Shown piece after piece: positions 868 to 46,050 of a DNA stretch of 64,000 nucleotides. A program made the translations under genes and the position numbers. The notes under the pieces are model-generated. The model was not told where the DNA came from, made no database searches, and was given only the letters and a program-made list of their open reading frames with translations. The number at the start of each line of letters is the position of its first letter. The stretch's first letter is position 1. The DNA comes from a virus (lineage: Duplodnaviria; Caudoviricetes), in IMG/VR virus record IMGVR_UViG_3300029288_006559, positions 32,001-96,000 of that record. One strand, given 5' to 3'.

Positions 868-3042
868 GTGACAAAAGCCACAGGTGTAGTTGAAGAAGTT
901 GTTAAGGAAAAAAATTATTTAGATGAATTATCGAATTTTATTTTTACAAGTAAATATGCACGTTATAATGAGAAGTTACAAAGAAGAGAGACATGGGGGG
1001 AGGCTATAAAGCGTGTAGAAAATATGCACTTAAAACATTTTTCTTATTTAAGTGAAGAAGATAAAGTAGAGATGAGCAAGGCTTTTGATCTTGTTAGAGA
1101 GAGAAAAGTAGTGCCTTCAATGAGAACCATACAGTTTGGTGGTAAAGCTGTAGAGGCTCATAATGAAAGGGCGTTCAATTGCGGTGCCTGTTATGTGGAT
1201 TCCATCAGATCTTTTGCGGAAGTATTTTTTGTTTTATTGTGCGGGACAGGAGATAGTATTGGAGTATTTAAAAGGTATATAGACAGATTACCAGATTTAG
1301 TCGATGCTTCTGATAAGGCCGGAATTGTTTTAAATTACGTTGTTGAAGACACTATAGAAGGTTGGGCAGATTCTGTTGAAGCATTATTAATGTGTTATCT
1401 TCGTAATACTCCTCTTACAGGGAGGAAAATAGTATTTGACTATTCTCATATAAGATCAAAAGGAGCTCCTTTAAAGACAGGAGGAGGTAAAGCCCCTGGT
1501 TATAAAGGATTGAAACAAGAGCACTTAAAAATTAAAGAATTGTTAGATCATATTATTGAAAAGCAGCATCAAAAGCGTTTGAATAGCGTTAATGTTTACG
1601 ATATTGTTATGCATTGCGCAGAGGCAGTACTTTCTGGGGGTATACGAAGATCAGCTACAAGCGTTCTTTTTGACAAAGACGATCAAGGTATGCTTAATGC
1701 TAAGACATACTTTAAGGTGACAAAAAGAGGAGGATTTGAATTTGATGAAAAGAAAAAGTTATGGGAGGGATGGGTATATGTTGACGATCTCCTATATAAG
1801 GGTATGAAACACGAGGTTGAAATACCTTATGGGAAAGAAGATGGTGAGTATAAGTTGTTGCAAGAACAAAAACTTATCTCTTGGTTAAGAGTATACCCCC
1901 ATAGAGCGCGTAGTAATAATAGTATTTTATTGATTAGAGAAACTGTTACTAGAGAAGAATTTAAAAAGATTTTTGATGCTACTCGTCAGCAAGGAGAGCC
2001 TGGCTTTGTATTCGGAGTAGAGGATTCTCTATTTAATCCATGTTTCGAAATTCAATTTTTACCTACTACAAAGGATGGAAGAACAGGACATCAATTTTGT
2101 AATTTAACATCTCAAAACGGAGCTTTGATAGATTCAGCAGAAGATTTTTATAAGTGTGCTAAAGCAGCTGCAATTATAGGTACTCTACAGGCTGCATACA
2201 CTGATTATCCTTATCTTTCTAATACAACAAAAGAGTTAACAGAAGAGGAAGCTTTATTGGGAGTATCTATTACAGGAATTATGGATAATCCAGATATATT
2301 TTTAAATCCTCTTTATTTGGAAACTGCTGCTAATATTGTGAAGAGTACAAACGAAGTTTGGTCAAAAAAATTAGGTATTAATCCTGCAGCTAGAACTACC
2401 TGTATCAAACCTGAAGGAACGAGTTCTTTAGTATTGAAAAGTGCTTCGGGGGCGCATCCCCACGAGGCTTTAAAATATATAAGAAGAGTTCAAGTTAATA
2501 AACTCGATCCGGTATATAAGTTTTTTAAAAAACATAATCCGCATATGTGCGAAGAGAGTGTCTGGAGTGCGCACAAGACCGACGATGTAATAGCTTTTCC
2601 TGTTGCTGTTTCCGAAAAAGTTATGGTAAAATCTGAATTAACTGCTTTACAACATTTAGAAATTATCAAACTTTTACAGCAACATTGGGTTATTCCAGGT
2701 ACGACGGAATACAATAAAAGACCTATAACGCACAATGTTAGTTGCACTGTTTTAGTTGGTGAAGATGAATGGGGGATCGTTATGAATTATCTTTATGATA
2801 ATAGAAATTATTTTGCTGCTGTTGCTTTACTTCCTAAAACTCGTGGAAAGATTTTTCCTCAACTACCTTTGGAAGAAATTACAGGTTCTTCTGAAGATCA
2901 AACTTTATGGACAAATATTATATCGAAATTTGCGCATGTAGATTATACAGAGTTGAGAGAAGAAGAGGATGCAACTTCTTTACAGCAAGAACTTGTATGT
3001 GCTGGTGGTCAATGTGAAATGCCTATTTTGAGTAACGCGTAA
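868..3042 (+). CDS. nrdJ: class II (adenosylcobalamin-dependent) ribonucleoside-triphosphate reductase
   Basis: KYAR...RETW, FNC, GGIRRSA, RARSNNS, GEPG, NPCFEI catalytic motif, FCNL, TCIKPEGT, C-terminal CAGGQCE. Confidence 0.93.
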   Translation: MTKATGVVEEVVKEKNYLDELSNFIFTSKYARYNEKLQRRETWGEAIKRVENMHLKHFSYLSEEDKVEMSKAFDLVRERKVVPSMRTIQFGGKAVEAHNERAFNCGACYVDSIRSFAEVFFVLLCGTGDSIGVFKRYIDRLPDLVDASDKAGIVLNYVVEDTIEGWADSVEALLMCYLRNTPLTGRKIVFDYSHIRSKGAPLKTGGGKAPGYKGLKQEHLKIKELLDHIIEKQHQKRLNSVNVYDIVMHCAEAVLSGGIRRSATSVLFDKDDQGMLNAKTYFKVTKRGGFEFDEKKKLWEGWVYVDDLLYKGMKHEVEIPYGKEDGEYKLLQEQKLISWLRVYPHRARSNNSILLIRETVTREEFKKIFDATRQQGEPGFVFGVEDSLFNPCFEIQFLPTTKDGRTGHQFCNLTSQNGALIDSAEDFYKCAKAAAIIGTLQAAYTDYPYLSNTTKELTEEEALLGVSITGIMDNPDIFLNPLYLETAANIVKSTNEVWSKKLGINPAARTTCIKPEGTSSLVLKSASGAHPHEALKYIRRVQVNKLDPVYKFFKKHNPHMCEESVWSAHKTDDVIAFPVAVSEKVMVKSELTALQHLEIIKLLQQHWVIPGTTEYNKRPITHNVSCTVLVGEDEWGIVMNYLYDNRNYFAAVALLPKTRGKIFPQLPLEEITGSSEDQTLWTNIISKFAHVDYTELREEEDATSLQQELVCAGGQCEMPILSNA

Positions 3043-3723: not shown

Positions 3724-4389
3724 ATGACGCAAATAGAGCAAGTTCAGATTCCTATTTTATTACCTAAAAGAGGTAAAGGACATCAAGAAGTAATGGCTTC
3801 TTTTTCTGTTCTTACTTCTAAACCCATAGATCCTCTTACATTTATTCCTATTATAAATACATACGCTAATAAAACGTGTATTATAGTAGATACTGTAGAT
3901 ATGAGTAAACGTTTTTTAAAAACTTTATCATTAGATGATGTGTTCATAAGCATATCTTTTGCATATATGTTAGACAGAGTTTCATCTCAGTTATCTCCTA
4001 CGTTCTTTTCTTTACCTTGTTTCTATGAACGTAGTGTAGGGTTTTCAGATAAAAATAGTATTGCCATAGGAGTTAAGCTACCCATGCAGGCATTTCTAGG
4101 GAAACCTATTTCTTCATCTTTGACTGTTAAAATTGAACATCCTTCAAATGTCTTTTTTGAAGATATTGTGGATAGGGTGTATAAAACTTTAGGGGCTGTT
4201 TTATGCCCTGCGGTTGAGACAAAATCTTTAGATCAAAATCCTTGCTATACTCCCGAAGAAACTTTAAAAAAACTTCGGGGTGTATTCAAAGAGAAGAAAT
4301 TAGGAAAAGGAGGTTCTTTGCAGGTAGAAACTATGGATCTTTATCATATGTATAAATTAACATATACAACATCATGGAAAAACAATTAA
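3724..4389 (+). CDS. degenerate FolE2 (GTP cyclohydrolase IB)-like T-fold protein, catalytic motifs lost
   Basis: Colinear with FolE2 (ISFAY~IEFNY, IGVKLP~LEVNV, FFEDIVD~WIEDVID, SLQVETMDLYH~SLKVENEESIH) but lacks CPCS, HNQR and ESIH. Confidence 0.6.
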   Translation: MTQIEQVQIPILLPKRGKGHQEVMASFSVLTSKPIDPLTFIPIINTYANKTCIIVDTVDMSKRFLKTLSLDDVFISISFAYMLDRVSSQLSPTFFSLPCFYERSVGFSDKNSIAIGVKLPMQAFLGKPISSSLTVKIEHPSNVFFEDIVDRVYKTLGAVLCPAVETKSLDQNPCYTPEETLKKLRGVFKEKKLGKGGSLQVETMDLYHMYKLTYTTSWKNN

Positions 4390-5174
4390 TGACATACGAT
4401 AAAGCTATTTTAAAATTTGGAACTGAGGCTAAGACTCCTAAAATGTCTTTAGGCGGATTATTGCTTTCTAGTGATGGTATATTCTATTCTTTACAAGGAG
4501 AAGGTCCTTCTATAGGACGGCCTGCTATTTTTATTCGTTTACATATGTGTAATTTACAATGTGATTGGACAAAGGCCGGTGGTGGAAGGTGTGATACATT
4601 CTATACCTGGGACAAAGATACCAAAGAATACTGGACATCTCATTTTTTTATGTCTTTTGAAGATATTTTAAAAGAGATTAAAAAATATTCCTGTAAAAGA
4701 ATTGTATTTACAGGAGGAGAGCCTCTGATTCAACAAAAACAAATTTTAGAATTTACGCAAGCATATCTTGATTCAGAGTATATTGTCGAAATAGAAACTA
4801 ATGGTACTATTGCTCCTTCTCGAGAGGTTCTTGCTGATCTTTCCCCCTTTTGTTTAAATTGTTCTCCAAAACTATCCTCAGCGGGAATGGAAAAGAAAGA
4901 TAGAATTAAGCCAGAAGTTTTACAGATTATAAATAACTATGAATCTTCTATTTTTAAATTCGTTGTGACCAGTATTGAAGATTTGGCGGAAATAGAAACC
5001 CTCGTGCAGGAACTTAAGCTACGATCAGACAAGATTGTTATAATGCCAGAAGGGGTAGATGTACAAACATTAACTAAGAGAATGCAAGAGCTAGCTGGCG
5101 TAGTAAAATTAAGGGGGTGGGCTATGATTCCCAGACTACAGATTTTTATTTGGGGGAATAAGAGAGGAGTGTAG
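4389..5174 (+). CDS. queE: 7-carboxy-7-deazaguanine synthase (radical SAM)
   Basis: FYSLQGEG, FIRL, CNLQC-x9-CDT, TGGEPL, IETNG, SPKL, FKFVV, MPEG, PRLQ. Start at 4389 (TAATG overlap) preferred over 4374. Confidence 0.93.
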   Translation: MTYDKAILKFGTEAKTPKMSLGGLLLSSDGIFYSLQGEGPSIGRPAIFIRLHMCNLQCDWTKAGGGRCDTFYTWDKDTKEYWTSHFFMSFEDILKEIKKYSCKRIVFTGGEPLIQQKQILEFTQAYLDSEYIVEIETNGTIAPSREVLADLSPFCLNCSPKLSSAGMEKKDRIKPEVLQIINNYESSIFKFVVTSIEDLAEIETLVQELKLRSDKIVIMPEGVDVQTLTKRMQELAGVVKLRGWAMIPRLQIFIWGNKRGV

Positions 5175-5175
5175 G

Positions 5176-5538
5176 ATGAATTTAGAGGAGGTTCGGCGAC
5201 AAGTTATTAGTGAATTAGATGCTACTTCCGGGGAGCAGGGGCAGGCACATGTTTTAGCCGCCGATGTCGTTCTTACTGCTTTACAAAGACTTGGTTACCG
5301 TATAGTTCCTGCTATGATTAGAGTAGAAGGTAGTGCTATTACAGATTTTCAGAGAGCTATTGCTCAACAATGTGCTTTAGTAAACATTACTTGCAATAAA
5401 CTACACACTTCTTTAGATGGTAAGAAAAGACCGTGCGGTAATCAAATGACTTACCAAGTAGAGGAACAAGATATAAACGGAGCTTCTATAATTCAACTTT
5501 TAATAGCAGATGGGTGGGTTATTATTCCACCTCAGTAG
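5176..5538 (+). CDS. hypothetical protein
   Basis: 120-aa ORF with GAGGAG RBS. Confidence 0.55.
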   Translation: MNLEEVRRQVISELDATSGEQGQAHVLAADVVLTALQRLGYRIVPAMIRVEGSAITDFQRAIAQQCALVNITCNKLHTSLDGKKRPCGNQMTYQVEEQDINGASIIQLLIADGWVIIPPQ

Positions 5539-5901: not shown

Positions 5902-8550
5902 ATGTCTATTTCTTTAAAAGAAGTTAATATTTCTTTTACACCTTTTTGGTGTACCCTTTCTTACTCTCCTACTCCTTCACCAAACTTTTCTCGTGAGCTG
6001 TTAATAGCATTTCAGCAATTAGAACAAGAATTAGATGATGCACTAAAGTTTCATACAGAAGGATATTATTTTTCTCCCCAGTATCAGAGCGGGGGGTGGG
6101 ATGGATATACTCATCTCTATCATTTGAAAACACATCGGTTCAGGGCGGGAATGCTTTTAAAGGTGTTAGAGTTTTTAGAAGTTAAAAGCATCGGCGGAAC
6201 TGTATTTAATTTCCCCGATCCGCAAACTTTTTGCCAAAATAGTAATACCTATACTTTACGCCCTTATCAACTAAAAGCAGCACAAGATGTTTGTAAAAGA
6301 CGGTTTGGGATTTTACAAGCTCCTCCTCGAGCTGGTAAGACAAACATAATTATTGCTATTACAGATTCAGAAAGACGGTTTCCCGCCATATTGTTCTGCA
6401 GGAGTTTAGATTTAGCTTATCAAACTGTAGAAAGATTTAGAAACTTTTTACCATCTGTTTCCGTAGGTTTGGTTGGAGACGGTAAGTGCGATATTCAAGA
6501 TATTACAATTATGACAGTGCAAAGCGCTTTTGAGGCTTTTAATCAGCGTCCGAAAAATTTCGATGTAGCAGAAACTGATAAAGCCTTAGTGCGAGATGTA
6601 GAAAAAGCTTCTGTAAGAAAACTTATTACCGATGCGGAGATTGTTTTCTACGATGAGTGTTTTCCAAAAGGTACATTAGTTCATACTGATGTAGATACAG
6701 TAGTTCCTATAGAAGCAATTTATGAAAATCAAGATATTACTCATGTTCTTTCATATAATAAAGAAACACGAACATTAGAAAGAAAGAGAATTCTTAAAAA
6801 AACGAAGAGAGAAATTTCTAAGGATAGACTGTTTTTAGTAGAAACGTCTTTACATAAAGGAGGAAAAAAATATAAAGTTAGGTGTACTGATACTCATAAG
6901 TTTTGGACAAACAATAGAGGGTATGTAGAAGCAAAAGATTTGTGTTGTAATGATAGTTTAAAAGTGTTAACTACCGGGAATATTCAAACAACTTCTTCTT
7001 ATTATCATGTACCTGTTTTTTGCAAGAGGTGTGGTACACGTTTGAGTAGTTATAAAAAGCTAAAACAGCATAATTACAAATGTCATACGAAAGAAGGGCA
7101 GAGAAAAACGCAGGAACATGCACGTAAAATGTGTATGGAAAGGGAAAAGAACCGAACCTGGAGAAAAAATTTAAAATTAATGGGGTTAAGACGAAGAGGT
7201 AAAAATAATACTGTTTTTAGACATCCTGATACTATTAAAAAGATTAGAGAAACTCACCGTCGACTTTTTAGGAATATGCCGAAAAAAGAACAGTTAATGC
7301 AAATTAAGAGGTTTATGAATGCTCCGATACATAAAAGAAATAAGATTAATCGTCCAGAAAAAACTATTATTTCTTTTAAATTTAAAGGGCTTGAATATAC
7401 TGCAAAAGGTTATCATAATGATAGAAAAGAAACTGCTATAGAATTAATATTAGGTGGTAGAGAAAGATATAAGTTTCCTGATTTTACTTATAAAAAAAGA
7501 AAAAAAGTTATAGAGGTAGCAGATTTTGAATATTGGCATACACGAAAAGAAATGAACAAAGTTAAATACGCTTATAAAAAAGCAGGTTGGGATTGTCTTG
7601 TTTTAAATGCAAAGCAGGTTGTCGAGTTTCCAGATAAGATAAAGCGTAAAATTGTAAAATTTTTGTACAATCATAATGTTTCTCCTATTAAGGTAGGTTA
7701 TTCTAAAATAGGCTTTTATAAACCTACCGTTACTGTTTATAATCTAGAAATAGAAGATAATCATAATTATTTTGCTAACGGATTTCTTGTAAGTAATTGC
7801 CACCACTCTTCTGCAAAAACGAGTAGGTATATACTTGATAGATGCAAAAACGCAGTAATGCGTATCGGTGTAAGTGCTACTCCTTTTGAAGGGGATTCTT
7901 CTGATTGGTTGGTAGAAGAATCTATTGGGCCAGTTATTCATAAGATATCTTACTCTGAGCTTGTAAAAGAGGGGTATATTTTACGCCCTTACATTTATAT
8001 GTATAAACTTCCTCCAATGAATTTAAAGGGGGATGCATATCGGACTGTTTACAAGAAAGCAGTAACTCATAATGATTATCTTACTGGTTTAATAAAGAAA
8101 ATAGTAGATACGTTAACTTCTCAAGGTAATTCCGTCGTTGTGCAAACAGAGTTCATTGAACATACAAAACTTCTTGCTGAAGTTACCGGTGGAGTAATGC
8201 TTACCGGTCAGGAACGAGACATGTCTGTGCGTACAGATGTATTGCAAAGGTTGCGCAGTAAAGAAATACTTTGTGTTGTATCTACTCTTTTTGAAGAAGG
8301 TTTAGATGTTGCTTCCCTTGATTATACAATTAATGTGGCGGGGGGTTTAAGTAATATTGGAACATTGCAAAGAATGCGTTCATTAACAGCGTCTGAAGGA
8401 AAGGAAACCTGTGGTATTATTGATTTTTATCATCAATGCGAATATCTTGAAAGACATAGCAAGATAAGAAGAGATATTTACACTTCTGAGGAGGAATTTG
8501 TTTTTGAGATGAGAGATGTAAGTAAGTTAAAATTAGAGGAGATAGAATAA
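5902..8550 (+). CDS. SF2 (DExH, UvsW-like) helicase containing an intein
   Basis: LRPYQ, APPRAGKT, DE|CH split by intein, GVSATP, EGLDV, QRMR. Confidence 0.9.
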   Translation: MSISLKEVNISFTPFWCTLSYSPTPSPNFSRELLIAFQQLEQELDDALKFHTEGYYFSPQYQSGGWDGYTHLYHLKTHRFRAGMLLKVLEFLEVKSIGGTVFNFPDPQTFCQNSNTYTLRPYQLKAAQDVCKRRFGILQAPPRAGKTNIIIAITDSERRFPAILFCRSLDLAYQTVERFRNFLPSVSVGLVGDGKCDIQDITIMTVQSAFEAFNQRPKNFDVAETDKALVRDVEKASVRKLITDAEIVFYDECFPKGTLVHTDVDTVVPIEAIYENQDITHVLSYNKETRTLERKRILKKTKREISKDRLFLVETSLHKGGKKYKVRCTDTHKFWTNNRGYVEAKDLCCNDSLKVLTTGNIQTTSSYYHVPVFCKRCGTRLSSYKKLKQHNYKCHTKEGQRKTQEHARKMCMEREKNRTWRKNLKLMGLRRRGKNNTVFRHPDTIKKIRETHRRLFRNMPKKEQLMQIKRFMNAPIHKRNKINRPEKTIISFKFKGLEYTAKGYHNDRKETAIELILGGRERYKFPDFTYKKRKKVIEVADFEYWHTRKEMNKVKYAYKKAGWDCLVLNAKQVVEFPDKIKRKIVKFLYNHNVSPIKVGYSKIGFYKPTVTVYNLEIEDNHNYFANGFLVSNCHHSSAKTSRYILDRCKNAVMRIGVSATPFEGDSSDWLVEESIGPVIHKISYSELVKEGYILRPYIYMYKLPPMNLKGDAYRTVYKKAVTHNDYLTGLIKKIVDTLTSQGNSVVVQTEFIEHTKLLAEVTGGVMLTGQERDMSVRTDVLQRLRSKEILCVVSTLFEEGLDVASLDYTINVAGGLSNIGTLQRMRSLTASEGKETCGIIDFYHQCEYLERHSKIRRDIYTSEEEFVFEMRDVSKLKLEEIE
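6658..7797 (+). mobile_element. intein (380 aa) with C2H2 zinc finger and Vsr/DUF559-like endonuclease
   Basis: Starts CFPKGT, block B CTDTHKF, ends YNLEIEDNHNYFANGFLVSN/C. Internal CxxC-x12-H-x4-H and FPDF...IEV...YWH. Confidence 0.88.
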
Positions 8551-12961: not shown

Positions 12962-13897
12962 ATGTCAGAACTTCCAGATATTCAAAATCAAAAAGACGAG
13001 CGTGGTATCGCTATTGATAGAGTTGGTGTAACAGGAATTATATTTCCGACCAAAGTAAGGGTTAAAAGAACGAAGATGGATCAATCTCTTCTTACTCTTC
13101 AACAGGAAACCGCTGCTAAGGTAGATTTATACGTTGGACTTCCTCACGATTATAGAGGAGCTAACCTTTCAAGATTTATGCAATGTTTGCTTTACTTCCA
13201 CCTCCAAGGAGCTGGATGTTTATCTATTGATACATTGCCTGAGCTTTTAAAAAAACTTCAAGAAGAAATGAAAAGTGAAGATGCTTATGCAAGGATAGAA
13301 TTTAATTACTTTGCAAACAAACTTTCTCCTGTAACAGAACTTTCTGCTCCTCAGGCTTACAAGTGTGCGTTTACGGGGATAATGAAAAAGGATGTGTATA
13401 GATTTATCTTGGAAGTGAATGTAATCGCTGCCTCTTTATGTCCTTGCAGTAAAGAGATGAGCCTGTTAGAGAATTTAACTGAAATTGTTAAGGAAAAGGA
13501 TACAGCGACAATCATAGGTGAAGGGGGGCCTCCAATGCTAGCAGGAAAGTCCTTACTCTCCCAGGTTGGTATGGGAGCCCATAATCAACGTTCTTTAATA
13601 CGTGTACAATTAACGTCGAAAGATAATCAAATAATATGGATAGAAGATGTTATTGACGCTATTGAAAAATCAGCTTCTGCTCCTACATACCCTGTATTGA
13701 AAAGGCCAGATGAAAAGTTTGTGACTGAACAAGCATATAACAATGCTAAGTTTAGTGAAGATATTTTAAGAGATTTGCAAAAGAATATAGAAGCTTTACC
13801 TAATGTAGACTCTTGGTCTTTAAAGGTAGAGAACGAAGAGTCTATACATCCTTATAATGTTACATGTTATCAAAATTCTGATAATTGGAATCATTGA
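12962..13897 (+). CDS. folE2: GTP cyclohydrolase IB
   Basis: LPDIQ, IDRVGV, GANLSRF, LCPCSKE, GAHNQRS, LKRPDEK, FSED, ENEESIH. Confidence 0.93.
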   Translation: MSELPDIQNQKDERGIAIDRVGVTGIIFPTKVRVKRTKMDQSLLTLQQETAAKVDLYVGLPHDYRGANLSRFMQCLLYFHLQGAGCLSIDTLPELLKKLQEEMKSEDAYARIEFNYFANKLSPVTELSAPQAYKCAFTGIMKKDVYRFILEVNVIAASLCPCSKEMSLLENLTEIVKEKDTATIIGEGGPPMLAGKSLLSQVGMGAHNQRSLIRVQLTSKDNQIIWIEDVIDAIEKSASAPTYPVLKRPDEKFVTEQAYNNAKFSEDILRDLQKNIEALPNVDSWSLKVENEESIHPYNVTCYQNSDNWNH

Positions 13898-18743: not shown

Positions 18744-20429
18744 ATGAAAAAAGCTATTATTATTCTTTCTGGAGGGATGGACTCCGCAGTACTATTAGCT
18801 AAGGTTTTAAAAGAGGAGTATGAAGTAGAAACCTTAAGCTTTGACTATGGTTCTAAACACAACGATGAAGAGTATAAACACGCATTAATGCTTTGCGAAT
18901 ATTATAAGGTTAAAAATCAGAGAATTGCTCTTCCGTTTGTGAATGACCTATTCAAATCTGACTTACTAAAAAGCGGTGGAGATATTCCCGAAGGGCACTA
19001 TGAAGATGAGAGTATGCAACGTACTGTAGTGCCAAATCGTAATGCTATTATGCTTTCCATAGCAGTAGGCTATGCTGAATCTGTTGGAGCTGGAGTTGTA
19101 TTTTATGGCCCTCATGCAGGAGACCACGCAATATACGATGATTGTCGCGATACTTTTGTAATACCTTTTGATAAAGCTATGCAAGCTGCTTCTGGAGGTA
19201 AAGTTGTAATAAAGGCTCCTTTTTTAGCATTGACAAAACGCGATATAGGTTTGATTGGAAAAGAGCTTGATGTTCCTTTTGAGAAGACCTATTCTTGTTA
19301 CAAGGGCGGAGAAAAGCATTGCGGGAAATGTGTAGCGAAAGATACAGAAATTCTTATGGGGGATTATAGTAAAAAATTAATTCAAGATATTGTAGTTGGG
19401 GATATTATTTTAAGCTACGACAAGAAAAAGAAATTAATTATTCCTAACAAAGTTGTGCAGGTACATTCTAACGGAAAGCAGGTTATTTATAATGCTAAGT
19501 TTGGAAGAAACATTCTTAGGTGTACTGATTCTCATAAGATTGCAAGATACACTAGTAGCAAAAATGTAGAGTTTGCTGTAGCAAAGAAGTTTTCTTCTTA
19601 TAAGCATTCAAACGCTTTTGTTGTTCCTTTTTGGAAAGATTTAACGCCTGTTGATTTAAAAGCATTCTGGACAGGGTGGTTATCCGGAGTTGTTGACGGA
19701 GACGGAAGTTTTGCGTCGCCGAAGAGCTACCCCAGAGAAAGATTTTTAGGAGTTCCTGTCAAGGAGGTAATTTTTGCAAAATTGATAAAAGAAAACGTAA
19801 AAAAATATTTTAATATAGATATGAGATTTGTAGATCATAAATCCTCCAGTATTGTTAAAGCACATAGTAAAATGATAAACGTTTGTTGTAGCATTACAAG
19901 AGATGTAAAAGCAGTTGAGAATCAGATTAAGTCATATGAAAAGACACTTGATTTTTGGAAAGGGTGGTTAAGAGGTATAATTGATACCGATGGGGGTATA
20001 GATAGATTTTCCTATAGAATTTATCAAAGCAAGCCTGTGATAGTGGCTAAGATTCGTCGAGCATTAAAGCAGTTAAATTTACCTTTTACTGAATATGTCC
20101 AGACAAAAGAAGATCATAATAGTAATTCCAAAAATAAATTACATGCTAATTACGATGCATATACTTTTGTTCTTTCTAGTGGGCATTTAACTAATGTAAT
20201 GACGGGTAATATTAAAACATTTAAGTATAAAGAGTTTAGTTTCTTATTAAAATTTTTAACTCGTCCCGTCTTTGATTCCTTAAAGGTAATAGGGGAAGAC
20301 GATACTTATGATTTAACAACAGAAATAGGTAATTACTTTGCTGATGGCTTCCTAATTCACAATTGTGGCACGTGTACAGAACGAAAAGAAGCTTTAGCAG
20401 GGTTTGATCCAACACAATACCTTGCGTAG
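18744..20429 (+). CDS. queC: 7-cyano-7-deazaguanine (preQ0) synthase containing an intein
   Basis: SGGMDS, FDYGSKH, TVVPNRN, YDDCR, TYSCY; spliced product gives HCGKCGTCTER. Confidence 0.94.
   Translation: MKKAIIILSGGMDSAVLLAKVLKEEYEVETLSFDYGSKHNDEEYKHALMLCEYYKVKNQRIALPFVNDLFKSDLLKSGGDIPEGHYEDESMQRTVVPNRNAIMLSIAVGYAESVGAGVVFYGPHAGDHAIYDDCRDTFVIPFDKAMQAASGGKVVIKAPFLALTKRDIGLIGKELDVPFEKTYSCYKGGEKHCGKCVAKDTEILMGDYSKKLIQDIVVGDIILSYDKKKKLIIPNKVVQVHSNGKQVIYNAKFGRNILRCTDSHKIARYTSSKNVEFAVAKKFSSYKHSNAFVVPFWKDLTPVDLKAFWTGWLSGVVDGDGSFASPKSYPRERFLGVPVKEVIFAKLIKENVKKYFNIDMRFVDHKSSSIVKAHSKMINVCCSITRDVKAVENQIKSYEKTLDFWKGWLRGIIDTDGGIDRFSYRIYQSKPVIVAKIRRALKQLNLPFTEYVQTKEDHNSNSKNKLHANYDAYTFVLSSGHLTNVMTGNIKTFKYKEFSFLLKFLTRPVFDSLKVIGEDDTYDLTTEIGNYFADGFLIHNCGTCTERKEALAGFDPTQYLA
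19329..20363 (+). mobile_element. intein (345 aa) with LAGLIDADG endonuclease
   Basis: CVAKDT start, CTDSHKI, LSGVVDGDG and LRGIIDTDG, YDL...NYFADGFLIHN/C. Confidence 0.92.
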
Positions 20430-21822: not shown

Positions 21823-22638
21823 ATGAGAATTGCACACGAAGCTCCTCTTTCTCTTATGAAATATGTTAAACAAGTTACTGACTATGATTATGCCCTAGCC
21901 TCTTTGTTTGATAATGTTTCAGGATATTATGAATATTTTAAGCAATCAAAAAAAGAGGGGCGTAAGATCCTTCTAGACAATGGTGTCTTCGAAGAAGGCG
22001 TTGCGATGAAAGATAAAGATTATGTTAATTGGATTAAAGATCTCCAACCAGATGAGTATATAGTTCCTGATGTAATGGGAGATATGCATAGAACTGTGGT
22101 TAACTTTCAAAAATGGTTATTAGAGTATCAGGATCTTCCAGGAAAGAAAATAGGGGTAGTTCATGGATATACTATAGAAGAGTTTATAGAATGTTATAAG
22201 TACATGTCTACATATGCTGATAAAATAGCTATAAATTTTTCTCAATCTTTTTATCAAGAAATTTATCCTCAACAACAAGGTATGAGTAAAGAAATAAAGC
22301 AAGCACAAGGAAGATTGTGGATTACGGGGCATTTACATTCTCTAGGTATTTGGAACGCAGAAAAACCACATCACTTGTTAGGAGCTTCTGTTCCTAGCGA
22401 ATTTAGTGCGTATGTAGAAAGACACCCTTCATTTGTATACAAGTCTATAGAATCTATTGATACAAGTAACCCCATTGTATATGCTATAGTAAAAGGAAGA
22501 TATCCCAAACATATAAGTGGGGTTGTAACAAAAGAAACTACTAAGGTAAAGGATTTGATAACTACTCCTTACTCTGATAAGCTTTTGATAGACGTTATAG
22601 CTAATGTTATTCAATTTAGAACACAAAATAACCTCTAA
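21823..22638 (+). CDS. TGT-fold base-exchange transglycosylase (DpdA-like candidate)
   Basis: ILLDNGVFE, IVPDV, GVVHG, HHLLG and SIDTS follow the TGT/DpdA motif order; genome encodes the preQ0 pathway. Confidence 0.7.
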   Translation: MRIAHEAPLSLMKYVKQVTDYDYALASLFDNVSGYYEYFKQSKKEGRKILLDNGVFEEGVAMKDKDYVNWIKDLQPDEYIVPDVMGDMHRTVVNFQKWLLEYQDLPGKKIGVVHGYTIEEFIECYKYMSTYADKIAINFSQSFYQEIYPQQQGMSKEIKQAQGRLWITGHLHSLGIWNAEKPHHLLGASVPSEFSAYVERHPSFVYKSIESIDTSNPIVYAIVKGRYPKHISGVVTKETTKVKDLITTPYSDKLLIDVIANVIQFRTQNNL

Positions 22639-45600: not shown

Positions 45601-46050
45601 ATGTTTGCAATTCATAAGTCTTTTAGTTGGGATATGGGGCATCGTATTAGCCAGCACGGAGGAAAATGTTTTTCTCCGCACGGTCATCGTTATAATGCCA
45701 CCGTTTGGCTTGGGGGGGTGCTTGGCGATAAAGGTATGGTAATGGATTTTTATCGGCTTTCTCAGATAGTTGACCCTATTGTTGAAGAGCTAGACCATGC
45801 CTTTATGGTATATGAAAAAGATGATGTAATGCGGTGGTTTTTCAGTGAGTGTAATAAGGAGGATCGTTGTTCTATATTACAAAAGCCCGAACGTCCCTTT
45901 AAAGTCAAGGTCGTTCCTTTTGAGTCTACAGCTGAGAACATTGCAAAGTATATTTTTGATAGGGTTTACGAAAAAACTCCTAATGTTGTTAAAGTAGAAG
46001 TTTGGGAGACTCCAAAATGTTGTGCTGTTTATGAGATTAATCTTGCCTGA
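45601..46050 (+). CDS. queD: 6-carboxy-5,6,7,8-tetrahydropterin synthase
   Basis: MGHR...C..PHGHRY, MVMDF, LDHA, STAENIA, VWETP. Confidence 0.93.
   Translation: MFAIHKSFSWDMGHRISQHGGKCFSPHGHRYNATVWLGGVLGDKGMVMDFYRLSQIVDPIVEELDHAFMVYEKDDVMRWFFSECNKEDRCSILQKPERPFKVKVVPFESTAENIAKYIFDRVYEKTPNVVKVEVWETPKCCAVYEINLA

Follow-up and report, generated by a model that had tools for sequence, protein, structure and literature searches.

The T-fold gene and its overlap with queE

The window analysed herein is a stretch of 64,000 nucleotides that covers bases 32001-96000 of IMGVR_UViG_3300029288_006559, a phage record in IMG/VR with a length of 134 kb and a completeness of approximately 73%. On its + strand, positions 3724-4389 hold a 221-aa open reading frame (ORF) with an ATG start and a GGAG-type ribosome site upstream. 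By the ORF, profile, and structure analyses, its product is a bimodular T-fold protein that derives from FolE2 and lacks the metal and catalytic site of that enzyme. The gene is followed by queE (4389-5174, +), which encodes the 261-aa radical S-adenosylmethionine (SAM) enzyme 7-carboxy-7-deazaguanine (CDG) synthase. An earlier note, made by reading the sequence, had claimed a 221-aa ORF with FolE2-like peptides at this place and an overlap of its stop codon with the start codon of queE. The ORF exists and contains all of the quoted peptides. The overlap is present as well: the TAA of the T-fold gene (4387-4389) and the ATG of queE (4389-4391) have one A in common, forming TAATG at 4387-4391 (+). 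The identity of QueE was confirmed by PHROG (phrog_2076, 6.5e-58), Pfam (Radical_SAM and Fer4_12), and NCBIfam, in which the five best matches were all QueE models. An alternative ATG for queE lies upstream at 4374; the public gene calls give the 261-aa form from the ATG at 4389, and the source names of the homologues are QueE. At threshold, the T-fold ORF itself had no family match in Pfam, PHROG, or NCBIfam, and the isoelectric point of its product gave no sign of nucleic-acid binding.

The proposed relationship of the ORF to FolE2 (GTP cyclohydrolase IB, GCYH-IB) was weak in pairwise comparison and firm by family profile, hhalign, and structure. BLASTP of the T-fold protein against the phage's own intact FolE2 (12962-13897) gave an E value of 0.012, weak alone, and paired FFEDIVD with WIEDVID and VETMDLYH with VENEESIH. 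An exhaustive search with an E limit of 0.001 returned 44 cluster representatives, with lengths of 170-322 aa (mostly 215-240 aa); the whole family comprises about 45 clusters. When the 44-sequence family profile was compared with the PDB, the significant matches were only FolE2 structures (2r5r, E 1.7e-11; 3d2o, E 1.7e-6). Alignment of the family with the FolE2 alignment of this phage clade by hhalign yielded a probability of 95.9% and an E value of 6.4e-9 over 197 columns, at about 14% identity. PF02649 was matched below threshold by 9 of the 44 family members, and the window protein itself had no PF02649 or NCBIfam FolE2 match. In a small local search, the family hidden Markov model (HMM) also detected, at 1e-8 to 1e-13, the true FolE2 ORFs that related phages carry.

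The fold pointed in the same direction. The AlphaFold2 (AF2) model of the T-fold protein (predicted local distance difference test score, pLDDT, 73.5) consists of two beta-beta-alpha-alpha-beta-beta modules. In Foldseek, GCYH-IB chains came top (2r5r and 3d2o; E 1.7e-9, template modelling (TM) score 0.76) and urate oxidases second. VIA-align against 48,161 chains gave a Z of 18.9 for 2r5r, with 211 residues at 3.5 A, about 14.5 for uricase, and at most 9.7 for single-module T-folds. All nearest ESM Atlas clusters carry PF02649 (TM 0.85), and the search of BFVD viral structures for the T-fold protein returned nothing at E 0.001 or better. The likeness to FolE2 (PF02649; 2r5r, 3d2o, 5k95, 8g6c) thus comprises the two-module T-fold, profile homology over about 200 residues, occurrence with the same pathway gene set, and motifs found in both: F-x-Y..[DN]-[RK]-x-S-P, a strand-5 Pro, an [FW]-x-E-D helix start, and Y-P. 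By residue, the family and the phage FolE2s have in common F79, the [DN]-[RK]-x-S-P around R85, the strand-4 Cys, P120, the E146-D147 helix start, Y-P162, and a C-terminal Trp. Collectively, the gene at 3724-4389 encodes a real, diverged FolE2 paralogue with a two-module T-fold.

FolE2 is a tetramer with active sites at the subunit interfaces (PMC11573665, PMC5699537). In B. pseudomallei numbering, Cys154 and His166, both of one monomer, and Glu208 of the neighbouring barrel bind its metal; the base is proposed to be Glu250, and a conserved His253 lies beside it (PMC11573665). The T-fold protein is about 40-90 residues shorter than FolE2. The deletion of the CPCS...HNQR segment, noticed by eye in the earlier note, was found in both the profile-PDB and the hhalign alignments, in which the entire Cys...His loop (CPCS...HNQRS) is missing. 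The GxNMSRF, LKRPDEK, and ENEESIH motifs of the phage FolE2s are also missing or altered in the T-fold family. In the column of the Glu ligand (PDEK), the family consensus has Lys and the window protein has L169, the preceding Asp being mostly retained. The replacement of ESIH by DLYH reappeared in the BLASTP alignment; the catalytic-base position is Asp in 98% of the family members (D205 here), and the partner His position is variable. A further residue of FolE2, Glu216 (N. gonorrhoeae numbering), we take to be the T-fold substrate anchor. Because the Cys/His loop, the Glu ligand, and the catalytic Glu/His pair are lost, the T-fold protein should be unable to carry out the FolE2 reaction, and conversion of GTP to dihydroneopterin triphosphate is excluded as far as the sequence can tell. 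The T-fold proteins differ from FolE2, then, in being a separate family, found only in phages, that lies below the Pfam threshold and is without FolE2-type metal ligands.

Loss of the ancestral site was not accompanied by decay of the gene. Eleven positions are conserved in at least 90% of the family (R16, G19, F79, R85, C99, P120, E146, D147, P162, D205, and Y207), and these hold across the approximately 45 clusters; E22, D84, S87, and D150 are the next most conserved. In L009/L017, the sole unsaturated genome pair (synonymous divergence, dS, 0.85), the ratio of nonsynonymous to synonymous substitution rates (dN/dS) was 0.17 for the T-fold gene, near the 0.13 of queE, and 0.26 for the neighbouring ribonucleotide reductase (RNR) gene; the gene is thus conserved and under purifying selection. 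All of the family clusters come from uncultured phages. A tblastn search with three family members found no match among 50,697 GenBank phage records, and a pattern scan of one genome each of 185,579 GTDB prokaryote species found no relative. We regard it as firm that these T-fold proteins form a family that descends from FolE2, lacks its metal site, and is maintained by selection in a single clade of large uncultured phages.

Gene order and deazaguanine genes in related phages

The gene contexts of 15 distinct core-type loci from metagenomes and IMG/VR, and of three divergent-type loci, were compared. The T-fold gene is tightly linked to queE in the relatives, queE lying directly downstream in 11 of the 13 informative core-type loci. 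A stop/start overlap occurs in the window, L004, L006, L013, and L014 (of the ATGA type in L004 and L006), whereas in L005, L009, and L017 the two genes are 12-22 nt apart. In L008, which is an exception, a 182-aa ORF of no known function takes the place of queE. In L013 (1142-2650), QueE is fused to an N-terminal domain of some 260 aa, for which the PHROG matches are weak and homing-endonuclease/resolvase-like; the partial ORF after the T-fold gene of L010 resembles this endonuclease-QueE fusion and probably represents the same arrangement. The idea that an N-terminal extension of QueE serves as a docking peptide was dropped, since the extension is missing from the QueEs of L014, L019, and L022.

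The order kept around the gene is sigma factor, RNR, T-fold gene, queE, small ORF, and helicase, with FolE2 5-9 kb further on. RNR is always upstream and is of three types: monomeric-like class II in the window and L005, NrdJ with a TSCPD domain in most loci, and class III NrdD in L007.

The intact FolE2 of the window (12962-13897, +) carries the CPCS, HNQRS, PDEK, and ESIH motifs, which are invariant in the phage FolE2 alignment, and matches PF02649 at 1.8e-73 and NF010200 at 224.9 bits (equivalog cut-off, 215). The claimed coexistence of the T-fold gene with an intact FolE2 extends from the window to L005, L014, L017, and L019/L020. The remaining genes of the route are queD (45601-46050, +; PF01242, 2.3e-30), the 6-carboxytetrahydropterin (CPH4) synthase with a canonical CxxxHGH motif (CFSPHGH), and queC (18744-20429, +; 561 aa), in which the QueC domain (PF06508, 9.8e-57, residues 3-198) is followed by Hom_end_hint and LAGLIDADG_3, that is, an intein with Hint and LAGLIDADG parts. 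As a separate observation, the FolE2s of this phage clade have, relative to the solved bacterial enzymes, an insert of about 30-35 residues between CPCS and HNQRS (13440-13580), inside the metal-binding loop.

This co-occurrence brings to mind one of the three roles put forward in the earlier note, that of a hetero-oligomer subunit, the other two being a QueE scaffold and a GTP/pterin-binding regulator. In the manner of a prozyme, the T-fold protein would join the FolE2 tetramer of the phage, or the enzyme of the host, as an inactive subunit and modulate or divert its activity. The T-fold protein is a paralogue of a tetrameric enzyme with interface active sites (PMC11573665; PMC5699537), it has the barrel core, the E-D helix motif, the strand-4 Cys, and the C-terminal Trp in common with the phage FolE2s, and an intact FolE2 is always present in core-type genomes. 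However, the T-fold gene never adjoins folE2, the two lying 5-9 kb apart; mixed interfaces would all lack ligands, and active sites would be lost; the divergent branch of the family persists without any FolE2; and at the sequence identity left between the two proteins the interface may not be kept. We consider this role improbable.

Candidate roles of the T-fold protein

Homology, fold, catalytic-site loss, purifying selection, gene order, and co-occurrence are the observations from which a role can be proposed. The reading we tentatively place first, as the most likely one, is that the T-fold protein is a non-catalytic binder of a pterin or deazapurine at the QueE step. The gene is a selected core gene of the clade, and in the phages with folE2, queD, queE, and queC its product would be made together with QueE by means of the overlapping or very close stop and start codons. 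The protein may still bind a 2-amino-4-oxo pterin or a 7-deazapurine in the remnant of the ancestral pocket. Candidate ligands are CPH4, the substrate of QueE, and CDG, its product, of which the carboxylate could be held by the near-invariant arginines. The T-fold protein would then act as a carrier or hand-off partner around the QueE step, presumably without catalysis of its own.

The evidence that most directly bears on a ligand came from the divergent branch of the family. Its members P0048 and P0050, in L103-L105, are flanked by a sigma-like gene on one side and the small-ORF/helicase pair on the other, RNR and queE both being absent. L105 belongs to record G007, a genome of 171,836 bp that is complete and has terminal repeats; the T-fold member of G007 matches the family profile at E 7.5e-38. 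Relative to the family model, the divergent branch retains P10, K16, K18, G19, F79, R85, S87, Y101, P120, E146, and D147, and has lost E22, D150, E179, G197, D205, Y207, and Y210. In the BLASTP and hhalign alignments, E179 and D205 are paired with acidic residues from FSEDI and ESIH, two motifs of FolE2. The contrast between the branches therefore singles out a mostly acidic set of residues that is kept only in the presence of the pathway; two of the set lie in what is left of the ancestral pocket. This loss of residues is the best evidence for a pathway-related ligand of the core-type protein, and it suggests rather than establishes such a role; the persistence of the pathway-less branch also suggests a second reason for keeping the fold.

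Given that persistence, the protein might instead have a role outside deazaguanine synthesis, as a core replication or nucleotide-metabolism protein, structural or regulatory and perhaps nucleotide-binding. Its place between RNR and queE would then simply mark a conserved slot that such genes entered or were swapped into. A complete genome keeps a member without the pathway genes, and the neighbours of the gene vary, with RNRs of three types upstream and QueEs of more than one lineage downstream. Nevertheless, the pathway-less branch is strongly diverged (approximately 155 residues pairwise, with six or seven conserved residues lost) and may have acquired a new function; all core-type members on long contigs co-occur with queE and folE2; and a protein descended from a pathway enzyme would most simply be expected to bind a pathway-related ligand. 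We regard a role outside the pathway as less likely, and on balance unlikely.

The placement of a non-catalytic binder at the QueE step has to be set against several findings. The complete genome G007 has no QueE, FolE2, QueC, QueD, or PF02867 RNR, and still keeps a family member. Among 80 further IMG/VR queE loci, with QueEs 26-39% identical to that of the window, 79 had no family member within 5 kb, the lone exception being a record already counted. The QueEs that adjoin T-fold genes fell in three places of the QueE tree and not in one clade; forcing a single clade on them cost 51.6 log-likelihood units (approximately unbiased (AU) test, p 0.0005), in a quick tree with long branches and with the constrained group chosen after viewing it. 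Since the RNRs are of three types and the QueEs of more than one lineage, both neighbours have been exchanged around a stable T-fold gene. The order of the whole module is conserved, and hence the neighbourhood alone carries little information; the adjacency of the T-fold gene and queE may reflect a conserved slot in the genome rather than co-evolution of the pair. To our knowledge, QueE acts alone in every characterised system. Longer, fused forms of the family were looked for and none was found, which is weak evidence. Finally, seven near-invariant positions are polar or Cys, and these could form a new active site and not just a binding site. The T-fold protein is not a general QueE partner, and the queE loci without it, the mixed QueE lineages, and the pathway-less branch argue against an obligate partner of either QueE or FolE2.

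The polar or Cys positions lead to a possibility that we rate nearly as likely as the non-catalytic binder, namely a neofunctionalised enzyme in which a new T-fold site, metal-free or differently metallated, acts on a pterin or a 7-deazaguanine. Such an enzyme could tailor 7-cyano-7-deazaguanine (preQ0) or CDG, or alter which deazaguanine enters DNA, in parallel with the descent of QueF from a FolE-like ancestor. The near-invariant positions R16, R85, C99, E146, D147, D205, and Y207 are those that are polar or Cys, E22 and D150 are conserved too, and decay of E22, D150, E179, D205, and Y207 is confined to the branch without the pathway. The T-fold superfamily includes the metal-free enzymes FolB, FolX, and uricase and the Cys-dependent QueF, and QueF provides a precedent, being near FolE in sequence and distinguished from it by lost Zn ligands (PMC5699537). 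Among the scanned genes no QueF, ArcS, or Gat-QueC was recognised, the QueC being a plain QueC with an intein. Conversely, the FolE2-QueD-QueE-QueC route to preQ0 is complete, with no step missing, and the T-fold protein has neither the NADPH motif of QueF nor a Pfam QueF match. The phage FolE2s already have a Cys in the column of C99, which is thus not a newly gained nucleophile. The T-fold protein has also evolved faster over long range, with 32% identity between the window and L005 compared with 48-57% for QueE, FolE2, and RNR. That FolE2 has given rise specifically to a new 7-deazaguanine enzyme, catalysing a so far undescribed step on CPH4, CDG, or preQ0 and leading to an undescribed DNA modification or route, is possible and somewhat doubtful. 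The earlier note had called the protein a retained pseudoenzyme. That it is a homologue of an enzyme, that the catalytic residues are lost, and that the dN/dS is low all agree with the term; the "pseudo" part did not stand in the same way, since the pattern fits a new catalytic site equally.

Comparison with described T-fold proteins, and neighbouring genes

In the actively studied field of phage 7-deazaguanine DNA modification, DpdL, DpdM, DpdN, and DpdA3/4 were found by gene-neighbourhood reading of the kind used here. The statement that no component like the T-fold protein is known from described dpd clusters agreed with the searchable deazaguanine papers, in which none was found; the nearest analogue is DpdL. 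DpdL is a QueD paralogue and the proposed CDG decarboxylase of Cellulophaga phage phiST (PMC10516641). As with the T-fold protein, a T-fold enzyme of the preQ0 pathway has a paralogue specific to phages, in which catalytic residues are altered and activity is unproven (PMC10516641). DpdL differs in being single-module, with an LxxxHRHxF motif and retained metal histidines, and in occurring in QueC-less phages, whereas the T-fold protein is two-module, without a metal site, and stands alongside QueC and a canonical QueD. The T-fold ORF had no match to PF01242, the QueD/DpdL family, the sole match in the genome being the queD described above.

The likeness to QueF is that of a precedent, a GTP-cyclohydrolase-type T-fold in which the metal ligands were lost and another role in the same pathway was taken up (PMC5699537). 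QueF derives from FolE and not from FolE2, and it has a Cys nucleophile, an NADPH motif, and a tested function, none of which was seen here. Its structural match to the T-fold protein covered one module (Z 7.8-9.3), Pfam QueF was not matched at E up to 1, and the NADPH motif E(S/L)K(S/A)hK(L/Y)(Y/F/W) is not in the T-fold protein sequence. On motif and family grounds, identification of the T-fold protein as DpdL was rejected, and identification as QueF appeared unlikely. Urate oxidase, the second-best structural match, is likewise a metal-free two-module T-fold, but it has no sequence relationship or motifs in common with the T-fold protein and acts in an unrelated pathway.

The family is confined to one clade of uncultured phages, and most phage QueEs do without it. 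Within that scope, it is a conserved, unannotated family that arose from the first enzyme of the pathway, lost that chemistry, and is translationally coupled to QueE. The T-fold protein is a candidate for an accessory protein in the oxygen-sensitive conversion of CPH4 to CDG or for a new tailoring enzyme, and the contrast of the pathway-linked and pathway-less branches marks E22, D150, E179, D205, and Y207 as its residues of interest.

Further along the window, ORF 21823-22638 (+, 271 aa; phrog_19058, function unknown) is likely the phage's DpdA, a transglycosylase, and is given as a lead only. Its nearest Atlas clusters are viral; one is auto-named transglycosylase (TM 0.93), and another carries PF23859 DpdA on 17% of its members. 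Searches of the ORF with PF01702 and PF23859 were negative, a PDB sequence search was empty, and the single-sequence AF2 model (pLDDT 34) was unusable. The 130-kb relatives G002 and G003 carry QueC, QueD, and a homologue of this ORF, and a homologue is also present in G001.

Upstream of the T-fold gene, 868-3042 (+) encodes the class II (B12-type, monomeric-like) RNR, as assigned by Pfam RNR-II_ins_dom and RNR_Alpha. The swap of RNR type in the same slot (868-3042; L007:2-505; L010:3-2318) represents in-place replacement. Downstream of queE, a small conserved ORF of 120 aa (5176-5538, +) has weak homologues in the same position in L005, L104, and L105, and ORFs of like size follow queE in L013, L014, L019, and L022. 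This small ORF of about 100-120 aa, of no known family, comes after queE in all relatives and directly after the T-fold gene in the queE-less phages. The helicase at 5902-8550 (882 aa) aligns with helicases of about 490 aa from L005, L017, and L019 in two blocks, 8-253 and approximately 625-881. The insert between the blocks, about 375 aa, is probably an intein or an endonuclease, and the long form also occurs in L014.

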